The position numbers are program-made. Positions 18,001 through 24,000 of a stretch of 24,844 nucleotides of DNA are shown in pieces. This stretch comes from an uncultured delta proteobacterium (GTDB taxonomy: Bacteria > Desulfobacterota > WTBG01 > CAIYCZ01 > CAIRTM01): NCBI GenBank assembly GCA_963804955.1, contig CAWDSQ010000003.1:1-24844 (forward strand), read 5' to 3'. Within the stretch, counting starts at the first letter, position 1; each line of letters opens with the position of its first letter.

Positions 18001-21000
18001 AAGCAGAATTTTCAGCTCGGCGTGCTTGAAGTGGTGCGCTACAATACCCGCGTGCTGCGCGACGGCCTGTCGCGCCAGCGCAGCACCGACTCAATCGATG
18101 CCGATTGCGACAAGGCCTTCACCAGCTTCAGCAATGATCCTTTGAAATGGATATTCCCCAGCGCCGAGGGCAAATATCAGGAGGGCATCGATCGCCTTGA
18201 AAACTACCGACTGCATCTTGAATCCGGCAGCGCATATTTTTATCCCCGCAGCGACAATCTCATTCAGCTGCTGGAGCAGTATGCCTCGCTGCTGGGCGGG
18301 GTGAATACGCGCCTGCTGAATGCCTCGCGCACGCGATCGACCACCCCTGACAATGCCTCTGAGACTTCAGGTATGCCCCGGTATACCCGGGTGCCGTGGC
18401 TGAAAATCGACGATAATTTTTACTTTGCCCGCGGCGTGGGTTATGGCTTATATCAGATGTTTAAAGCCGTCCGGGTTGATTTTGCGCAGGTTCTGAAAGA
18501 CAAAAACGCCGATATCATCATAGCTGAAATTATTGCCTCCCTTGAGGAAACCGCCTTTGACCCGCTGGTGGTCACCAATGGGGGCAAAAGCGGCATATTT
18601 GCCAGCCACAGCAGCAACCTGCGCGTTTTTCTGGATGATGCGCGGCAGAAGATCAATTCTCTTGTCAACATCCTTGCTCAGGGCTGACGGCCCGCGAGGC
18701 ATTTCCGTTGACACCCGGGCCGTTCTTCGCCTATACTTTAGCCCTACTTAGTGTCTGAACGAAAAGTCATTTTTTTGTTGGATTAAGCCCGAAAGAACCC
18801 GTTGGGTTTCGTACCTCAACCCAACCTTGCGCAAAAAACAAATGCTTACGAAAAAGCACTGTCATAAGGGCGAACCCAACAAATGTATGGTTCGGGGTTT
18901 TCGTTCAGGCACTACTTACAACCCCGACGTGTAGCAGCATGCAGCCATGACTGAAAAAAAAGGACATGAAGACCCCCTGCAATTTGCCGCTCTGGTTGCC
19001 CACCAGCTGCGCTCGCCTGTCGGCGCGGCTGCATCGCTGCTCAAAACGATACTGGGCGAGTATGCAGGCCGCCTCAATTCAAAGCAGAAAGATCTGGTAT
19101 CACGGGCGGACAGGCGCATCGAGGAGGCGCTTGATGCCGTAACCAGGATGCTGGCCATTGTGCGGCCGGAAACAAGCGGCGGCGACGGCAACTCCATATG
19201 CGAAGCCGCAGCCGTGGTGCGCCGCGTGCAGCAGCAGCTGACTGAGGAAGCCCGGGCCGCCATATAGCCCTGAGTCTCGATATTCTGATCGAGCCCGCCT
19301 ATATACGCATAGCCGAATCCGGTTTTGCCGAGGTGCTCAATGCCCTGGTGAACAATGCACTGAAATACACCCCCGATAATGGTAAGGTTCGCCTGACACT
19401 CGCTTGCCTCGTGCCAGAATGACTCCATTTGTATTTCCGTGGCTGATTCGGGCATCGGCGTGCCCGATGACCAGCGCGAAAGGATATTCGAGCCCTTCTA
19501 CCGTTCGGCAAGCGCTCAGAACACGACCCTGCCGGGCGTGGGCCTCGGGCTTGCCTTTGTTAAGGCTGTGGTTGATGCCGCCGGCGGCAGAATCTCGGTG
19601 CAGAAGGCCGATCTCGGCGGGGCTGAGTTTTCCATGGTGCTGCCCCGCATTGCCGACGACCAGGTCCCCCGGGAGTCGGAGCTGTTTGACCAGGACCGCA
19701 TGAAGGTGGTCATCATCGGCGGCGTTGCTGCGGGTCCCAAGGTTGCATCAAAGGTCATTCGCCTCCAGCCTGAAACCGCCGTTACCATCATTGAGCGGGG
19801 CGAGTTTCTCTCCTATGCCGGCTGCGGCCTTCCCTACTATGTTTCGGGCATCGTGAAGGACCAGAAGGAGCTCATGAGCACGCCTCTCGGGTGCGTGCGC
19901 GACCCTGTTTTTTTTCAAAATCTGAAAAATGTGAATGTTTTGAACCGAACCGAGGCCCTTGAAATCGACCGCGCGGCCAAGCGCGTGCGCATCAAAAATC
20001 TTATTTCATCCAGGGAAAGCTGGATCAGCTATGACAAGCTTGTGCTGGCTACCGGCGCCACACCCATCATACCGCCTCTGCCCGGCGCGTATTTGAACAA
20101 TATCTATACCCTGCACGGCGTGCGCGATGCCGAAGGCGTGCGCACCCATCTTGCAAGCCGAAAGGCGCGCGATGTAGTTATCGTCGGCGGCGGCCTCATC
20201 GGCGTTGAAATGACTGAAGCGCTGGTGGCCCGCGGCTGCCGCGTGACTATCGTTGAGGCCCTGAATCAGATCATGCGCACCCTTGACTGGGAAATGGCGC
20301 AGCTGCTGGAGCTGCACATGGAGGCAAATGGCGTGCGCGTCATGACCGATACCCGCGTCATGTCATTTGCCGGCTCTGAGTTTGTTGAGGGCGTGGTGAC
20401 CGACAAGGCTACGCTGCCGGCCGATATGGTGATACTCGGGGTGGGCGTAAGCCCCCAGGTGGAGCTTGCCCGCAATGCAGGCCTTGAAATCGGCCCCACG
20501 CAGGCCATCAGGGTCGACAACCGCATGCTCACCTCCGATCCCGACATATTTGCCGCAGGCGACTGCGTGGAAAATATCGACATCATTACCGGGCAGCCCA
20601 TATACGTGCCCATGGGCTCAACGGCCAATAAACAGGGCCGCATTGCGGCCGTCAATATTTGCGGCGGTAACGATACCTTTCCCGGTGTGCTCGGCACCGT
20701 GGTCTGCAAGGTGTTTGAGTACTGTATCGCCCGGACAGGGCTTACCGAGGCCGATGCCCGCGATGCAGGCTTTGATGTGGTGACGGTGCTTACCGGCGCG
20801 TCCGACCGCGAGCATTTTATGCCCAATGCCAAACCACTGATGCTGAAATTGATTGTCGACGCGCCGTCGCGGCGGCTTCTGGGTGTGCAGGCGGCAGGGC
20901 CGGGGCAGGGCGACAAGCGTATCGATGTGGCAACGACCGCTATCACTGCAGGCATGACGGTGGATCAGATCGCCAATCTCGATCTCTGCTATGCTCCGCC

Positions 21001-24000
21001 GTATTCCCTTGCTATGGACAATCTCATCACCGGCGCCAATATTGCCAAGAACAAGCTTGACGGCGTTTTTGAGAGCATCAGCCCCATGGAGGTGCATGCC
21101 AAGATGCAGCGCCATGAGGATTTCGTGATGCTGGACGTGAGCTCGCCGCAGGAGTACGAAGAAGTGCGTCTGCCCGGCTCGATGCATATTCCCTCGGGCG
21201 CCCTGCGCTCCCGGCTTTCGGAAATCCCGAAAGACAAAGACATAGTGGCGTTTTGCCGCTTGTCGATCCGCGGCTATGAGGCCGCACTTATTCTTAAGGC
21301 CGCAGGGTTTTCAAGGGTGCGCGTCATGGACGGCGGCATTGTGATGTGGCCCTATGAGAGGGTTCATGGGATGAAGTAAAAAGGGCAGTCTCCTTGTCTG
21401 TTTTTGGTATAAAAAAAGCCTGTCGTGATTCATGGCAGGCTTTTTGTTTTTTCTTTGATGGAGCATTTTTCATTATTTTGTAGCCGCAGTTTATGTGCAG
21501 GGCAGGCCCGTTCGTGGTGAGCACGTAGAACCATGAACGGAAAGTCACCTTTCGACCCTTCGCCAAGCTCAGGGCTTAGGGCGAACGTAGAGGGTTTTCA
21601 GAAGAGAGTTTTTTATGAAGGCTACACTATTTAGAAAAATGCTCCGGCACCAGCTGCAAGATGACGACACATGACTTGCACAGGGACATGCCGCAAAGGG
21701 AATCCGTGATGAGCGGCTCAGTAAAAAATTGACAACAGGTCCAATGTTTACTACTAAGAAATACGCATTATCCAGAAGGGAAATGCCGGCTGTGCAGAAA
21801 AGCCCCTATCCTGCATGTGCTCAAAGGAAAAAGTCTGCGTTTTTACAGCCGTTGATTCATCCCCCTGCGAACCATGCTTTCACAGGGTTAAGGGCACTGA
21901 AACAATTGAACAGTAACTGAAAAGGAGGGTTTTAATATGAAAATCATATTGAGTTTATGTGTTCTCATTGCCGGGCTATGCGTGTTTTCCATGCCTGCTG
22001 CCGCCCATATGCCAAATGTTGAACGCCGGGATTTGACAGAAAAATGGCCTTTTAGAATCAAGGGGACTATAGAAAAGGGTCAGGCCGTTTACGCCTATCT
22101 CAATTCAGGCAGCGATATCGATGTGTACCGGTTTACCGTTCCCCAAAAGGAGATCAGCGAAAAAGGCAGCGTGACCCTGCGCGTCAGGGTGAATGTCCCT
22201 GCCTGTGAGGGTGGGCCGGAATTTTTACCATGGCTGGCCATTGTCGGTCAGGGGCTGCCGGCGCCAACAGAAGATATCCCCTTTACATTGCCTGAAGGCT
22301 ATGGGGCAATTGTCATAAAAAATACGGAGCCGGGAGCGGAAAGAAACTTTTTCTATGAGCAGTACAGTAAAAAGTCCTATTACATTACGGATTACTATGA
22401 CTATACGATAACCGCGCCCGGAACCTGGTATTTATATTACTGGGACCCTTATAACGTTGGCGGCGATTATCTGGCCCTCTGGGGCGTGAAAGATTCTTTT
22501 GATCCCGGGGACGGGCTTAAAATGCTCATCAACCTGCCGGGAATCTTGAGTGACCGCGTTATGCATGCTGAATGCGAATGGATCATCCCGGACAATGCCA
22601 CCGCGGCAGCAAGCAGCTGTCTGAACTAGCTGTTTTGAGCTTAAGAGTCTTATCTGCTGCAGGAACGCCTGTACTAAAGGTCTTTTTTTTAGGTTGGGTT
22701 CATCCGCTCCGGCGGAAAACCCTGTAAATAATATGGTTCAAATTTTTCATTCAGCCGCTTATTAACTGCTGGATGGGAAAAAGATCGGAGCATCTCATGC
22801 TGGAACTGCTCACAAACCCAGAAGCCTGGATAGCGCTCGGAACGTTGACAGCCCTGGAGATTGTACTGGGCATAGACAATATTATTTTTATTTCTATTCT
22901 TGTAGGCCGCCTTCCCGAGAATCAGCGTGCTTTCGCAAGGCGCATGGGGCTCGGGCTGGCCATGATCAGCCGTCTGGCTCTGCTGTTTTCCATTGCCTGG
23001 GTTTTGAAGCTGACCGAGCCGTGGTTTGTAATCTTCAATCAGGAAATTTCAGGCCGCGATATTATTCTTATCGGGGGCGGGCTGTTTCTTCTTGCCAAGG
23101 CGACGCATGAAATACACAACAGCCTGGAAGGCATAGAGGATACGGCCGGCATTGCTGTCGCCGCAAGCATAGGCATGGTGCTGGTGCAGATCACGGTGCT
23201 GGATATTGTTTTTTCGCTGGATTCAGTGATAACGGCTGTCGGCCTTGGCGGGCATTTTGCCGTTATGGCGACAGCCATCATCCTGGCGGTAGGGGTCATG
23301 CTGTTTGCCGCAAAATCCATAGGGGATTTCGTTGATGAGCATCCGACGGTTAAGGTTCTGGCTCTTTCGTTTCTTATTTTAGTGGGCGTCACGCTGATGG
23401 TGGAAGGATTTGATGTGCATGTACCTAAGGGCTATATCTATTTTGCCATGGCGTTTTCAGTGGTCGTGGAGATGCTCAATATCCGCATGCGGAATAAACG
23501 GGCTGAGCCGGTCAGGCTGCACAAGCAGCTGCACGATAGTGAAGAGGGAAAAATTTAATCCGGCCAGCCAGATGGCTGACAGTGCCGCCGGGCGATCGCA
23601 ATGATCTCACGGCTGTACTGCGCGGAGCAGAGGATTTTTCAACGACCGCGTCCGTGTTATTTGTTTTTCCAGTCATCAAGGTAATAATTTGACAGCACTG
23701 TCTTCAGTTTTCCTGAAGCCCGTAATTCATCAAGGCCCTGCGAAAAAACAGCTGCCTCAGCTTTGCAGTCAGGGCAGAACCCAATATACAGTTTTGCCGG
23801 CTCTTCCGCAATGCCCGCACTTTGTAACTTGCGGGCGCACTTCATGCTGTAAGCTTTGTACGTAACGACATTTCGATCATCGATCAGTGCCTTAATTTTA
23901 CCTTCAAGCAGCATGACCATCAATTCTTTCAGCGGACTCGTGCCGCCGATTTCCACAAGCATGTTTTTTTTTAAAAGCGTATCGCGCAGGTCAAAGGCAT

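Follow-up and report, generated by a model that had tools for sequence, protein, structure and literature searches.

In the 24,844-nt window, by which we mean the whole stretch of DNA analysed on contig C3, the forward strand carries at 18947-21379, stop codon included, a gene for an 810-residue protein that joins a HisKA/DHp and HATPase_c kinase core to a flavoenzyme of the Npsr/CoADR-RHD type with a rhodanese tail. The gene is broken here by two single-base indels. Pfam searches of the two open pieces detected HisKA (31.3 bits, cutoff 26.9) in 18947-19264 and the C-terminal half of HATPase_c, Pyr_redox_2, Pyr_redox_dim and Rhodanese in 19439-21376; the scores for the gene at this position were 214.6 bits for Pyr_redox_2, 66.9 for Pyr_redox, 65 for Pyr_redox_dim and 53.3 for Rhodanese. 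An intact orthologue, P0001, is 810 aa long and shares 93% identity with the 646-aa piece of the interrupted gene. Its domains are HisKA (residues 12-75), HATPase_c (126-232; PF02518, 83 bits), Pyr_redox_2 (252-545), Pyr_redox_dim (587-690) and Rhodanese (716-801). The searches of both open pieces and the intact orthologue thus agreed with the domains and coordinates given by the first-pass annotation.

All parts of the gene lie on the forward strand. The DHp (HisKA) helical hairpin (residues ~10-76) is encoded at 18974-19174 and contains the phospho-acceptor His19 (CAC, 19001-19003), followed by Gln20 in the H-box AHQLRSP. The HATPase_c catalytic domain (residues 126-232; 19322-19642) possesses the N, G1 (D167xGxG171), F (F181..F184) and G2 (G197xGLG201) boxes. 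A linker of ~18 residues (~235-251; 19649-19699), poorly conserved and with low model confidence at 242-247, leads from the kinase core to the pyridine-nucleotide-disulfide-oxidoreductase module (19700-21016), which includes the FAD motif GGVAAG (258-263), Cys293 (19823-19825), the NAD(P)H Rossmann motif GGGLIGVE (414-421), GDC (538-540) and the dimerisation domain (587-690). Both nucleotide-binding motifs were conserved in the full-length alignment. The rhodanese domain (residues 716-801; 21092-21349) carries the active-site loop C770-RLSI-R775, with the Cys codon at 21254-21256. Codons for every key residue were found at the locus (H19, Q20, N137, D167, G171, G197, G201, G258-G263, C293, GDC 538-540, C770 and R775). 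The kinase core begins at residue ~10, and no membrane segment, sensor, HAMP or PAS domain precedes the DHp hairpin. The sensor-less cytoplasmic design that had been noted before, conserved and present in several phyla, was borne out. The AF2 model of the fusion had a pLDDT of 82 and a pTM of 0.66.

A promoter-like site (TTGACA, 18 nt, TATACT; 11/12) was located at 18708-18737 on the forward strand, just past the point where the DUF2333 gene upstream ends, and a terminator-like hairpin with a 15-pair stem and a T run was located at 21413-21445 on the same strand, 34 nt past the stop codon; both are consensus matches only. Inserted in the leader, after the promoter-like site and ahead of the start codon, is a MITE-like dispersed repeat of ~170 nt (18745-18917, borders approximate) with 16-nt terminal inverted repeats, which is missing from the corresponding site in the redundant contig C18. 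Judging by the promoter-like site and the strong terminator-like hairpin, the fusion gene is a putative monocistronic, stand-alone unit. No Response_reg domain was found among the 16 ORFs scanned in the whole window, in agreement with the earlier statement that no cognate response regulator is adjacent. Among 29 fused loci, a response regulator lay at most three genes away in 5, and this proximity was not conserved; the three stand-alone receivers among those 5 loci showed a mutual identity no higher than 29%. No gene next to the fusion is conserved. At one of the 29 loci, L057, a GAF-kinase gene and a stand-alone receiver gene come before the fusion on the same strand.

In 30 full-length members, H19, Q20, N137, D167xGxG, the F-box, the G2 box G197xGLGL202, GGVAAG, C293 and GDC were invariant, which upheld the previously claimed invariance of the kinase boxes, the FAD motif and C293. 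Within the F-box, P183-F184-x-R186 was invariant and F181 was present in at least 90% of rows; the H+4 position was Ser23 in at least 90%. All 77 relatives, fused and unfused, had C293, whereas the rhodanese Cys (C770) was missing in 7 of 28 fused relatives against 0 of 47 unfused ones. C770 is accordingly less conserved than the earlier figure of at least 90% of homologues, as 21 of 28 fused loci retained it once more lineages were included. The pattern of an acidic H+1 residue and Thr/Asn at H+4 (H-E/D-x-x-T/N) was absent from the fusion, which has H-Q-x-x-S; Q20 was also present in all 22 fused loci fitting the H-box pattern, and the other HisKA H-boxes of the same genome had E/D at H+1 in 22 of 23 cases.

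In excerpts from the mutational literature, CrdS E372Q abolished autokinase activity and kept full phosphatase activity, NtrB E140Q produced a kinase-minus phenotype, E-to-A changes at the same position abolished kinase activity in HK853, HK4262 and HK1190, and Thr/Asn at H+4 was needed for phosphatase activity (PMC3510030). Gln at H+1, the very substitution that kills autokinase activity in CrdS, counts against a kinase role. Because Gln stands in place of the acidic residue beside His19, the output of the fusion may lean towards phosphatase activity or rely on unusual kinase chemistry. An alternative, which we regard as rather unlikely, is that the module is not an autokinase but mainly a redox-controlled phosphatase, or a reverse phosphotransfer sink, acting on a regulator phosphorylated by another kinase, and that the conserved ATP-binding boxes serve a nucleotide-stimulated phosphatase activity. 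The invariance of Q20 in 30 of 30 aligned members and in all pattern-fitting loci and the behaviour of the CrdS and NtrB mutants are in its favour, and at L057 the fusion follows a kinase and a receiver as a second phosphatase-type partner might; however, that arrangement was seen at 1 of 29 loci, and the invariance of the N, G1, F and G2 boxes goes beyond what a nucleotide-stimulated phosphatase would seem to need. Moreover, PhoQ still autophosphorylates without an acidic H+1 residue. The Ser at H+4 also argues against this explanation, given the Thr/Asn found to be needed for phosphatase activity in the excerpted work (PMC3510030).

The frame of the gene is broken by exactly two single-base indels, both private to C3, and these, at 19254 and 19403, were the only indels that set the window apart from the relatives' short-read contigs. 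At 19254-19255 a base is missing, and C17, C18 and the contigs of run X1 and of the RNA-library run X18 have one base more. The shifted-frame segment at 19255-19402 (residues ~104-152) is open and homologous there and includes the N-box (Asn137, 19354-19356). One base too many at 19403, absent from C17, C18 and the run X1 contig, brings back the original frame. The same-genus genomes G004 and G002 have a full-length fusion without stops. C17 and C18 are colinear with C3 and 93-97.5% identical to it across 6-10 kb, so the copies on them, already described as redundant, are co-binned strain variants and not paralogues. Each of these two contigs bears its own private single-base indels in the fusion gene, and they share the position of one inserted base (after C3 20802) with different letters. 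Thus, all copies are indeed interrupted, as had been reported, with indels in all three contigs, but the cause is best explained by assembly errors and not by gene decay. Codon position 3 takes 61 of the 70 substitutions between C3 and C17 and 84 of the 114 between C3 and C18, a bias between strain copies that shows the fusion gene to be under purifying selection. Another gene of the window, DAO (16438-17563), is split too.

The indels at 19254 and 19403 most likely arose as errors in the consensus of a strain-mixed assembly, and the organism therefore probably makes an intact protein. That the gene has been truly inactivated in the C3 strain, and that the co-binned strains each lost it in events of their own, seems improbable to us. 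Frame-breaking indels do occur in each of the three contigs, and a run with the source reads was sought among sequencing runs and not found, the best run holding 0.25 of the sampled words. However, the substitutions between copies are overwhelmingly of the synonymous type, so all three would have to have been inactivated very recently and at the same time; the different letters inserted at one site in C17 and C18 look like a systematic consensus error; and the DAO gene is split as well, while relatives have an intact fusion. For the annotation of the present genome, the fusion gene should be recorded as intact in relatives and probably frameshifted by assembly, and C3, C17 and C18 as redundant strain contigs.

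Among the 120 best database clusters, HATPase_c was present in 118, a length of 790-840 aa in 110 and a scored HisKA in about 61; these counts correct the earlier figures (most clusters of 800-830 aa, HisKA in about half). The fusion occurs widely among anaerobe MAGs, across several phyla. In a set of 41 genomes (its own and 40 relatives), fused matches, full-length or pieced, occurred among the matches listed only in its own family (9 of 16 other genomes), and none was listed for the 24 genomes outside it. An unfused paralogue, 47% identical, is encoded in the same genome at C14:234392-236068, and at least 8 of the 41 genomes, its own counted, have both forms. When the kinase module was searched against 1.84 billion representatives, the ten best matches (40-47% identity) were whole proteins or fragments of the fusion family and those beyond were generic kinases (26-34% identity), suggesting that this module is specific to the fusion. 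In the reductase tree, the fused forms did not make up one clade (AU p 0.016), and the unfused L038 was nested among the fused rows. No residue at any column distinguished fused from unfused reductase modules, and hence no kinase-docking surface was visible in sequence.

These comparisons bear on the quite improbable scenario that the protein is mainly a persulfide/polysulfide reductase whose kinase core regulates or scaffolds the enzyme, as an ATP-dependent control or an extra dimerisation module. Its reductase module cannot be told apart from unfused enzymes at any column, with C293 in all 77 rows, and the kinase module has been lost repeatedly without apparent change in the enzyme, as the tree and the placement of L038 indicate. 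Yet His19 and the whole H-box, which a scaffold does not need, are invariant, the loss of the rhodanese Cys is confined to fused forms and fits relaxed catalysis, and many fusion-bearing genomes also retain the unfused paralogue. An assembly chimera or mis-joined gene pair, for which nothing beyond the poor quality of contig C3 speaks, is refuted by the occurrence of both halves in one ~810-aa protein in 118 of 120 best database clusters from many sources, by the 29 loci from independent MAGs with the whole gene in a single frame and by the relatives' genomes.

The data above establish the architecture, the conservation of all kinase and reductase motifs, purifying selection, the broad distribution, the absence of a conserved partner gene and the presence of an unfused paralogue alongside the fusion. 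As an explanation of the whole we favour, with a probability of roughly 55%, a real, selected gene for a soluble 810-residue two-component protein with the flavoenzyme as its only possible input, working by the mechanism set out here, the indels being most likely assembly errors. Domain logic suggests, as the first-pass annotation proposed, that the flavoenzyme replaces a sensor and that the fusion would be a redox- or persulfide-sensing kinase or phosphatase reporting the thiol/persulfide redox state. The only possible input module would be the NADH-dependent persulfide/polysulfide-reductase-type flavoenzyme (FAD, Cys293, rhodanese Cys770) behind the ATPase domain, and the kinase and reductase halves would each be an obligate homodimer. 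The redox or ligand state of the reductase dimer (NADH-reduced FAD, a Cys293-CoA mixed disulfide or persulfidation of the rhodanese Cys) would alter the access that the two tethered ATPase domains have to His19 in the DHp bundle, and this access would decide whether an unlinked ("orphan") response regulator is on balance phosphorylated or dephosphorylated. Sensors normally act N-terminal to the DHp helices, and the position of the enzyme module C-terminal to the ATPase domain complicates the sensor reading, as do the invariant Gln at H+1 and the lack of residues that tell fused from unfused reductase modules; the scarcity of response regulators near the fused loci also counts against it; with such an input module and an unconserved linker, no known helix-borne signalling path applies.

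More tentatively, a catalytically competent persulfide-reductase dimer could be a "trigger enzyme" input placed, without precedent, after the ATPase domain. The fusion would then be the first two-component protein to sense either sulfane sulfur or the NADH/CoA-thiol redox state, and its natural Gln H-box could turn it into a switch between phosphatase and kinase, gated by redox state, that acts on an unlinked regulator of genes for sulfur or iron-sulfur trafficking; this extension is possible but doubtful. The sensing of reactive sulfur and of the internal thiol/NADH balance in anaerobes is poorly known, and to our knowledge the known persulfide sensors are one-component repressors. If the favoured reading is true, a widespread kinase with a whole flavoenzyme as its sole input would represent a new route from metabolic state into two-component signalling, and its input, placed after the catalytic domain, would be a geometry not seen before in kinase control. 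A direct test of the idea is possible, as the protein is soluble, about 810 residues long and has clear point-mutant sites (H19, Q20, C293 and C770). A full-text search found no description of a HisKA-HATPase_c/persulfide reductase fusion, consistent with the earlier view of the design as undescribed, and no two-component persulfide sensor was found in the literature searched. The invariant H-box Gln, the loss of the rhodanese Cys only in fused forms and the finding that the fused forms are not one reductase clade are new here.

In a PDB sequence search, A. fulgidus Npsr (6PFZ) matched residues 252-801 end to end (E 1.9e-147) and HK853 (3DGE/2C2A) matched residues 11-228 (E 1e-20); 6PFZ was also the best fold match of the AF2 model (TM 0.92 normalised to target, 44% identity). 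The flavoenzyme module is complete and closest to this characterised NADH-dependent persulfide reductase, whose activity it is predicted to share. The name CoA-disulfide reductase proper should not be used, as the NCBIfam equivalog TIGR03385 scored 421.4 bits, below its cutoff of 578.8. Like the Npsr/CoADR-RHD/CoAPR enzymes (A. fulgidus Npsr 6PFZ, B. anthracis CoADR-RHD 3ICR, Shewanella loihica Npsr 3NTA and E. faecalis CoAPR 8A56), the fusion has FAD and NAD(P)H motifs, a single redox Cys (Af Cys42, Sl Cys43) and a rhodanese surface Cys (Af Cys519), together with the loop that in AfNpsr closes over CoA. Going by the AfNpsr features in excerpts of its paper, C293 of the fusion aligns to Af Cys42, residues 312-319 to the loop TTYGAVR and C770 to Cys519, and "histidine kinase" appears 0 times in that paper (PMC7969121). 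Unlike the fusion, the solved or studied Npsr/CoADR-RHD enzymes are stand-alone proteins of about 550-590 aa without a kinase module. With HisKA kinases (T. maritima HK853, WalK/YycG and PhoR-type), the fusion shares the DHp hairpin with a phospho-acceptor His and the N, G1, F and G2 boxes, but its phospho-acceptor His is already at residue 19, its sole extra module is C-terminal and it has no cognate regulator beside it. CstR, SqrR, BigR and FisR, one-component transcription factors, detect their signal through the persulfidation of Cys, and sulfane sulfur is a signal that the fusion may have in common with them. A precedent for C-terminal control of a histidine kinase is CheA, with its regulatory P5 domain behind the ATPase domain; it belongs to another kinase class with another regulatory domain, and no homology is claimed. 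The fusion and NifL, MmoS (FAD-PAS), ArcB and RegB/PrrB have in common the idea that kinase output is tied to a redox cofactor or a redox-active Cys. In these kinases, however, the sensing part is a small N-terminal domain or a single cysteine, whereas the fusion would have a whole catalytic pyridine-nucleotide-disulfide oxidoreductase dimer with its own substrate-capture domain, placed after the ATPase domain.

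The genome to which the window belongs is metagenome-assembled (36 contigs, 4.26 Mb, 87% complete, 2% contamination), and the window is the whole of its contig C3, on whose forward strand the fusion gene (18947-21379) lies in two open pieces. The first (18947-19267) encodes 106 aa with a HisKA domain, and the second (19439-21379) encodes 646 aa matching the C-terminal half of HATPase_c, Pyr_redox_2, Pyr_redox, Pyr_redox_dim and Rhodanese in Pfam. A three-frame reading revealed that residues ~104-152, including the N-box, are homologous and open in another frame (19255-19402); therefore, a single frame of 810 codons is broken by two single-base indels, a missing base after 19254 and an extra base at 19403. 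Codon reading indicated that the kinase core in the window encodes the phospho-acceptor His19 (19001-19003), Gln20, Asn137, D167xGxG171 and G197xGLG201, that the reductase encodes GGVAAG (258-263), the redox cysteine Cys293 (19823-19825) and GDC (538-540), and that the rhodanese encodes Cys770 (21254-21256) and Arg775.

The 646-aa piece, used as query, retrieved 7,697 relatives. Among the 120 best clusters, whose identity to the query ranged from 93% down to 61%, 118 possessed HATPase_c, reductase and rhodanese domains and 110 were 790-840 aa long, in agreement with the first-pass annotation, which had described most of the best clusters as fusions of 800-830 aa. In an alignment of 30 full-length members, the invariant columns comprised H19, Q20, P24, N137 and K140-Y-T-P143 in the kinase, D167-S-G-x-G171, P183-F184-x-R186 and G197-x-G-L-G-L202 in the ATP-binding region, G258, V260-A-A-G263, C293 and G538-D-C540 in the reductase, and R775, Y777 and E778 in the rhodanese. 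The kinase motifs and C293 that had been reported as invariant remained so; in GGVAAG, G259 is conserved in at least 90% of members. The linker at ~235-251 varies in both sequence and length. Residues 11-228 match the kinase cores of HK853 and WalK type at the sequence level, and the first DHp helix begins ~10 residues after the start of the protein, so the fusion has no sensor, HAMP, PAS or membrane segment. The flavoenzyme would be the sole candidate input. The AlphaFold2 model (pLDDT 82.3, pTM 0.66) showed low confidence at residues 1-7, 74-81, 242-247, 311-325 and 804-810. A docking prediction of the kinase core (1-250) with the reductase-rhodanese part (251-810), using 30-row alignments, yielded no answer (score 0.00) and weighs neither way.

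The H-box of the fusion reads (A/S)-H-Q-(L/M)-x-S-P, with Gln at H+1 in all 30 aligned members and in all 22 fused loci that fit the pattern (the other 6 of 28 fall outside it). Among the other HisKA H-boxes of the same genome, 22 of 23 carry Glu or Asp at H+1. According to the available text of Willett and Kirby (PMC3510030), the E372Q, E372A, E372D and E372G variants of CrdS are kinase-dead while dephosphorylation is normal, NtrB E140Q behaves as kinase-minus, HK853 E261A loses autophosphorylation, and phosphatase activity requires Thr or Asn at H+4, a position occupied by Ser in the fusion family. Because of the Gln at H+1, the Ser at H+4 and these mutants, as far as that text describes them, the kinase module may be phosphatase-biased or may use another catalytic base; a 2026 preprint, in the part available, states that such H-box rules may fail in some HisKA-like families (10.64898/2026.02.27.708494). 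That the fusion acts as a phosphatase and nothing else appears unlikely to us: although the substitution at H+1 is of the kind reported to spare dephosphorylation, the residue at H+4 is neither Thr nor Asn, and the invariant ATP-binding boxes argue, at the level of sequence, that nucleotide binding matters.

We then weighed whether the two frame breaks reflect error or decay. The window's gene shares 96.9% identity with its copy on contig C17 and 95.1% with that on C18, and the three contigs are mutually colinear across 6-10 kb at 93-97.5% identity, as in co-binned strain variants; a paralogous origin of these copies was therefore rejected, and their earlier description as redundant is borne out. 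The three-way alignment revealed only single-base indels, which interrupt every copy, as had been noted. Two are private to C3 (19254, 19403), two to C17 and six to C18, and after C3 position 20802, where C3 is open and homologous, both C17 and C18 have an extra base, with differing letters. Substitutions fell at third codon positions in 61 of 70 cases between C3 and C17 and in 84 of 114 between C3 and C18; therefore, the copies diverged under purifying selection. In a search for the source reads, the best public run contained a fraction of 0.25 of the window's sampled words. When short-read contigs of the best runs were compared with 18900-21400, the sole indels were a base inserted behind 19254 (runs X1 and X18) and a base omitted at 19403 (X1), and the two in X1 are exactly the changes that restore the C3 frame. 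X18 is an RNA library whose contigs match parts of the gene at 88-95% likeness, which is no proof of transcription. In two genomes of the same genus (G004 and G002), the gene is full-length and stop-free; together with the X1 contigs, this upholds the earlier statement that relatives are intact. A DAO-family FAD oxidoreductase gene on the reverse strand (16438-17563) is also broken, appearing in the ORF and Pfam scan as a pair of overlapping ORFs (16438-17223 and 17078-17563), likely through another frameshift error on C3. Because of the frame-restoring contigs of relatives, the intact same-genus genes, the private indels, the third-position substitutions and the second split gene, we consider the two breaks to be consensus errors of a strain-mixed assembly, with a probability of about 0.8. 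A real and very recent inactivation in the window's strain is quite improbable.

Several further observations concern the assembly. The orthologue of the split DAO-family gene occupies the same place in the closest fused locus, L001. A radical-SAM ORF (6913-8028, forward) and the next ABC-transporter ORF (7878-9836, forward) overlap by ~150 bases in the ORF list, perhaps through a further frame error or a start called too far upstream. The share of each contig covered by open frames of at least 250 aa was tried as a measure of error and rejected, because it is similar on all 36 contigs and so does not gauge the error rate. The small contigs C3, C17, C18 and C15 run colinear with one another where they overlap (89-97.5% identity), a sign that the bin contains redundant strains; numbers of genes and of 'paralogues' taken from this assembly will be too high.

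A promoter-like site (18708-18737) and a 15-pair terminator-like hairpin (21413-21445), both consensus matches on the forward strand, are consistent with a monocistronic unit. The leader contains a MITE-like element of ~170 nt (18745-18917, approximate borders) with 16-nt terminal inverted repeats, AGTGCCTGAACGAAAA ... TTTTCGTTCAGGCACT; it has no Rfam match, and a scan of the whole window at the gathering threshold returned none. The genome contains more than 30 whole or partial copies of it (75-90% identity), spread over at least 20 contigs. C18 has none at this site, so the insertion is polymorphic between co-binned strains. The gene is flanked upstream by a DUF2333 gene and downstream by a Pfam-less protein and then TerC. 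No response regulator was present among the 16 window ORFs scanned with Pfam, confirming that no cognate regulator is adjacent. Across the 80 best database loci (one genome per species), clustering of 1,067 crude ORFs, together with a Pfam scan of 137 of the 152 ORFs within three genes of the 29 fused genes (ORFs below 85 aa dropped), revealed no neighbour family common to fused loci. Rex-like genes occur near the fusion in two of the 29 loci, as does OsmC, and NifS and NifU lie downstream in L001. A receiver domain lies within three genes of the fusion in five (L002, L003, L007, L018 and L057); two of these belong to other kinases and three stand alone, and the latter were rejected as one family, being at most 29% identical to each other. 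In L057 (8353-13222), the fusion stands in a row on one strand with a Rex-like gene, a GAF histidine kinase and a stand-alone receiver; this is the only locus seen with the fusion apparently embedded in a redox-signalling operon. Unfused relatives, with the reductase-rhodanese part and no kinase module, often adjoin Mrp/NUBPL-type ATPase, radical-SAM, Nitro_FeMo-Co-like, DUF134, DUF5320, ArsR-type, thioredoxin, NifU and C_GCAxxG genes, a neighbourhood that resembles a setting of sulfur and iron-sulfur trafficking. Mrp/NUBPL ATPase, Nitro_FeMo-Co-like, DUF134, DUF5320, radical-SAM and ArsR-type genes recur together in L016, L064, L072, L075, L080 and others, where they look like a cluster, so far uncharacterised, through which anaerobes would traffic sulfur or iron-sulfur.

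Of the 80 loci, 29 are fused, 2 partial and 49 unfused, the match of the last beginning near residue 250 at 55-69% identity. According to record labels, fused genes occur in Thermodesulfobacteriota, Phycisphaerae/Sedimentisphaerales, Pirellulales, Planctomycetaceae, Brocadiia, Verrucomicrobiota, Lentisphaerae and Anaerolineales, so the architecture does recur in several phyla as first proposed. In the 40 nearest genomes, among the matches listed (805 weaker ones fall outside), the fused gene was found whole or in pieces in 9 of the 16 others of the window's family and in none of the 24 outside it, which had just unfused matches. An unfused paralogue coexists with the fusion in 8 genomes, among the matches listed, including the window's own, where a stop-free frame on contig C14 (234392-236068, reverse strand) encodes an Npsr/CoADR-RHD-like protein 47% identical to residues 252-805. 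Fused and unfused forms were intermixed in a quick maximum-likelihood tree built from 77 rows of the reductase-rhodanese part, without the short L037 and without L011 and L079, which had no row in the alignment; the label requires 6 changes, of which well-supported branches force at least 2, and an AU test on quick-search trees rejected the tree holding the 29 fused rows together (p 0.016). When the kinase module was searched against 1.84 billion representatives, the ten best matches (E 1e-49 to 1e-60, 40-47% identity) were whole members or fragments of the same family, and those beyond were generic kinases (26-34% identity); by sequence, the module is one distinct lineage. A tblastn search for a split form, with five kinase modules against the 49 unfused loci, returned one weak match ~8 kb away and none nearby. 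The kinase-core-only proteins P0122, P0126 and P0128 (238-239 aa) could either exist on their own or be truncated calls. N-terminal extensions in L033, L041, L062 and L042 were rejected as over-extended ORFs of crude gene calling, and that of L075 as read-through from the upstream Nitro_FeMo-Co-like gene. The simplest history would be a single fusion event followed by repeated loss of the kinase module; alternatively, exchange might have taken place between fused and unfused paralogues within the genomes they share.

At the chosen thresholds, no columns separated fused from unfused reductase modules. Cys293 is retained in all 77 loci. Of 28 fused loci, 7 lack the rhodanese Cys (Gly in L007, L008, L013, L014 and L022; Ser in L024 and L025), against 0 of 47 unfused ones. 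The earlier figure of at least 90% for Cys770 is therefore too high for the fused loci, although the window's lineage retains the residue. The independent losses are few, so they are a hint and not a statistic; as such, they fit the idea that sulfur capture is less needed once the enzyme serves signalling. It is very unlikely that the fusion is primarily an enzyme with the kinase core as its regulator or scaffold, a role compatible with the universal Cys293 and ill at ease with the lost rhodanese cysteines.

In solved relatives, the kinase and reductase halves are both dimers. In the mechanism we propose, the reductase dimer, depending on its redox or ligand state, would restrict or free the two ATPase domains, which would be tethered to the reductase N-termini through linkers of ~18 residues, the candidate states being NADH-reduced flavin, a Cys293-CoA mixed disulfide and a persulfide on Cys770. 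The freedom of the ATPase domains might then determine the balance of kinase and phosphatase activity on an unlinked response regulator.

Among characterized enzymes, residues 252-801 match best the NADH-dependent persulfide reductase of A. fulgidus (AfNpsr, 6PFZ; E 1.9e-147), onto which the model superposes with 44% identity and a target-normalised TM score of 0.92; weaker matches were obtained to B. anthracis CoADR-RHD, Shewanella Npsr and the E. faecalis CoA-persulfide reductase. The fusion protein does not reach the NCBIfam cutoff for the CoA-disulfide reductase equivalog, so 'Npsr/CoADR-RHD-like' is the safe name. The available text on AfNpsr (PMC7969121) describes Cys42 as its active-site cysteine, Cys519 as the sulfur-accepting rhodanese cysteine, and a closing loop (60-66, TTYGAVR) that covers bound CoA; its substrates are given there as persulfides and polysulfide, not disulfides, with NADH as the only reductant. 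In the sequence alignment, Cys42, Cys519 and the loop, as described there, correspond to C293, C770 and residues 312-319 of the fusion. No published description of a kinase-persulfide reductase fusion was found in the full-text literature, subscription-only papers being outside its scope, and within that range the first-pass view of the architecture as undescribed holds. Compared with the systems in this literature, the predicted protein is new in that the sole candidate input of a two-component kinase is a flavoenzyme at its C-terminal side, a placement and partner without precedent.
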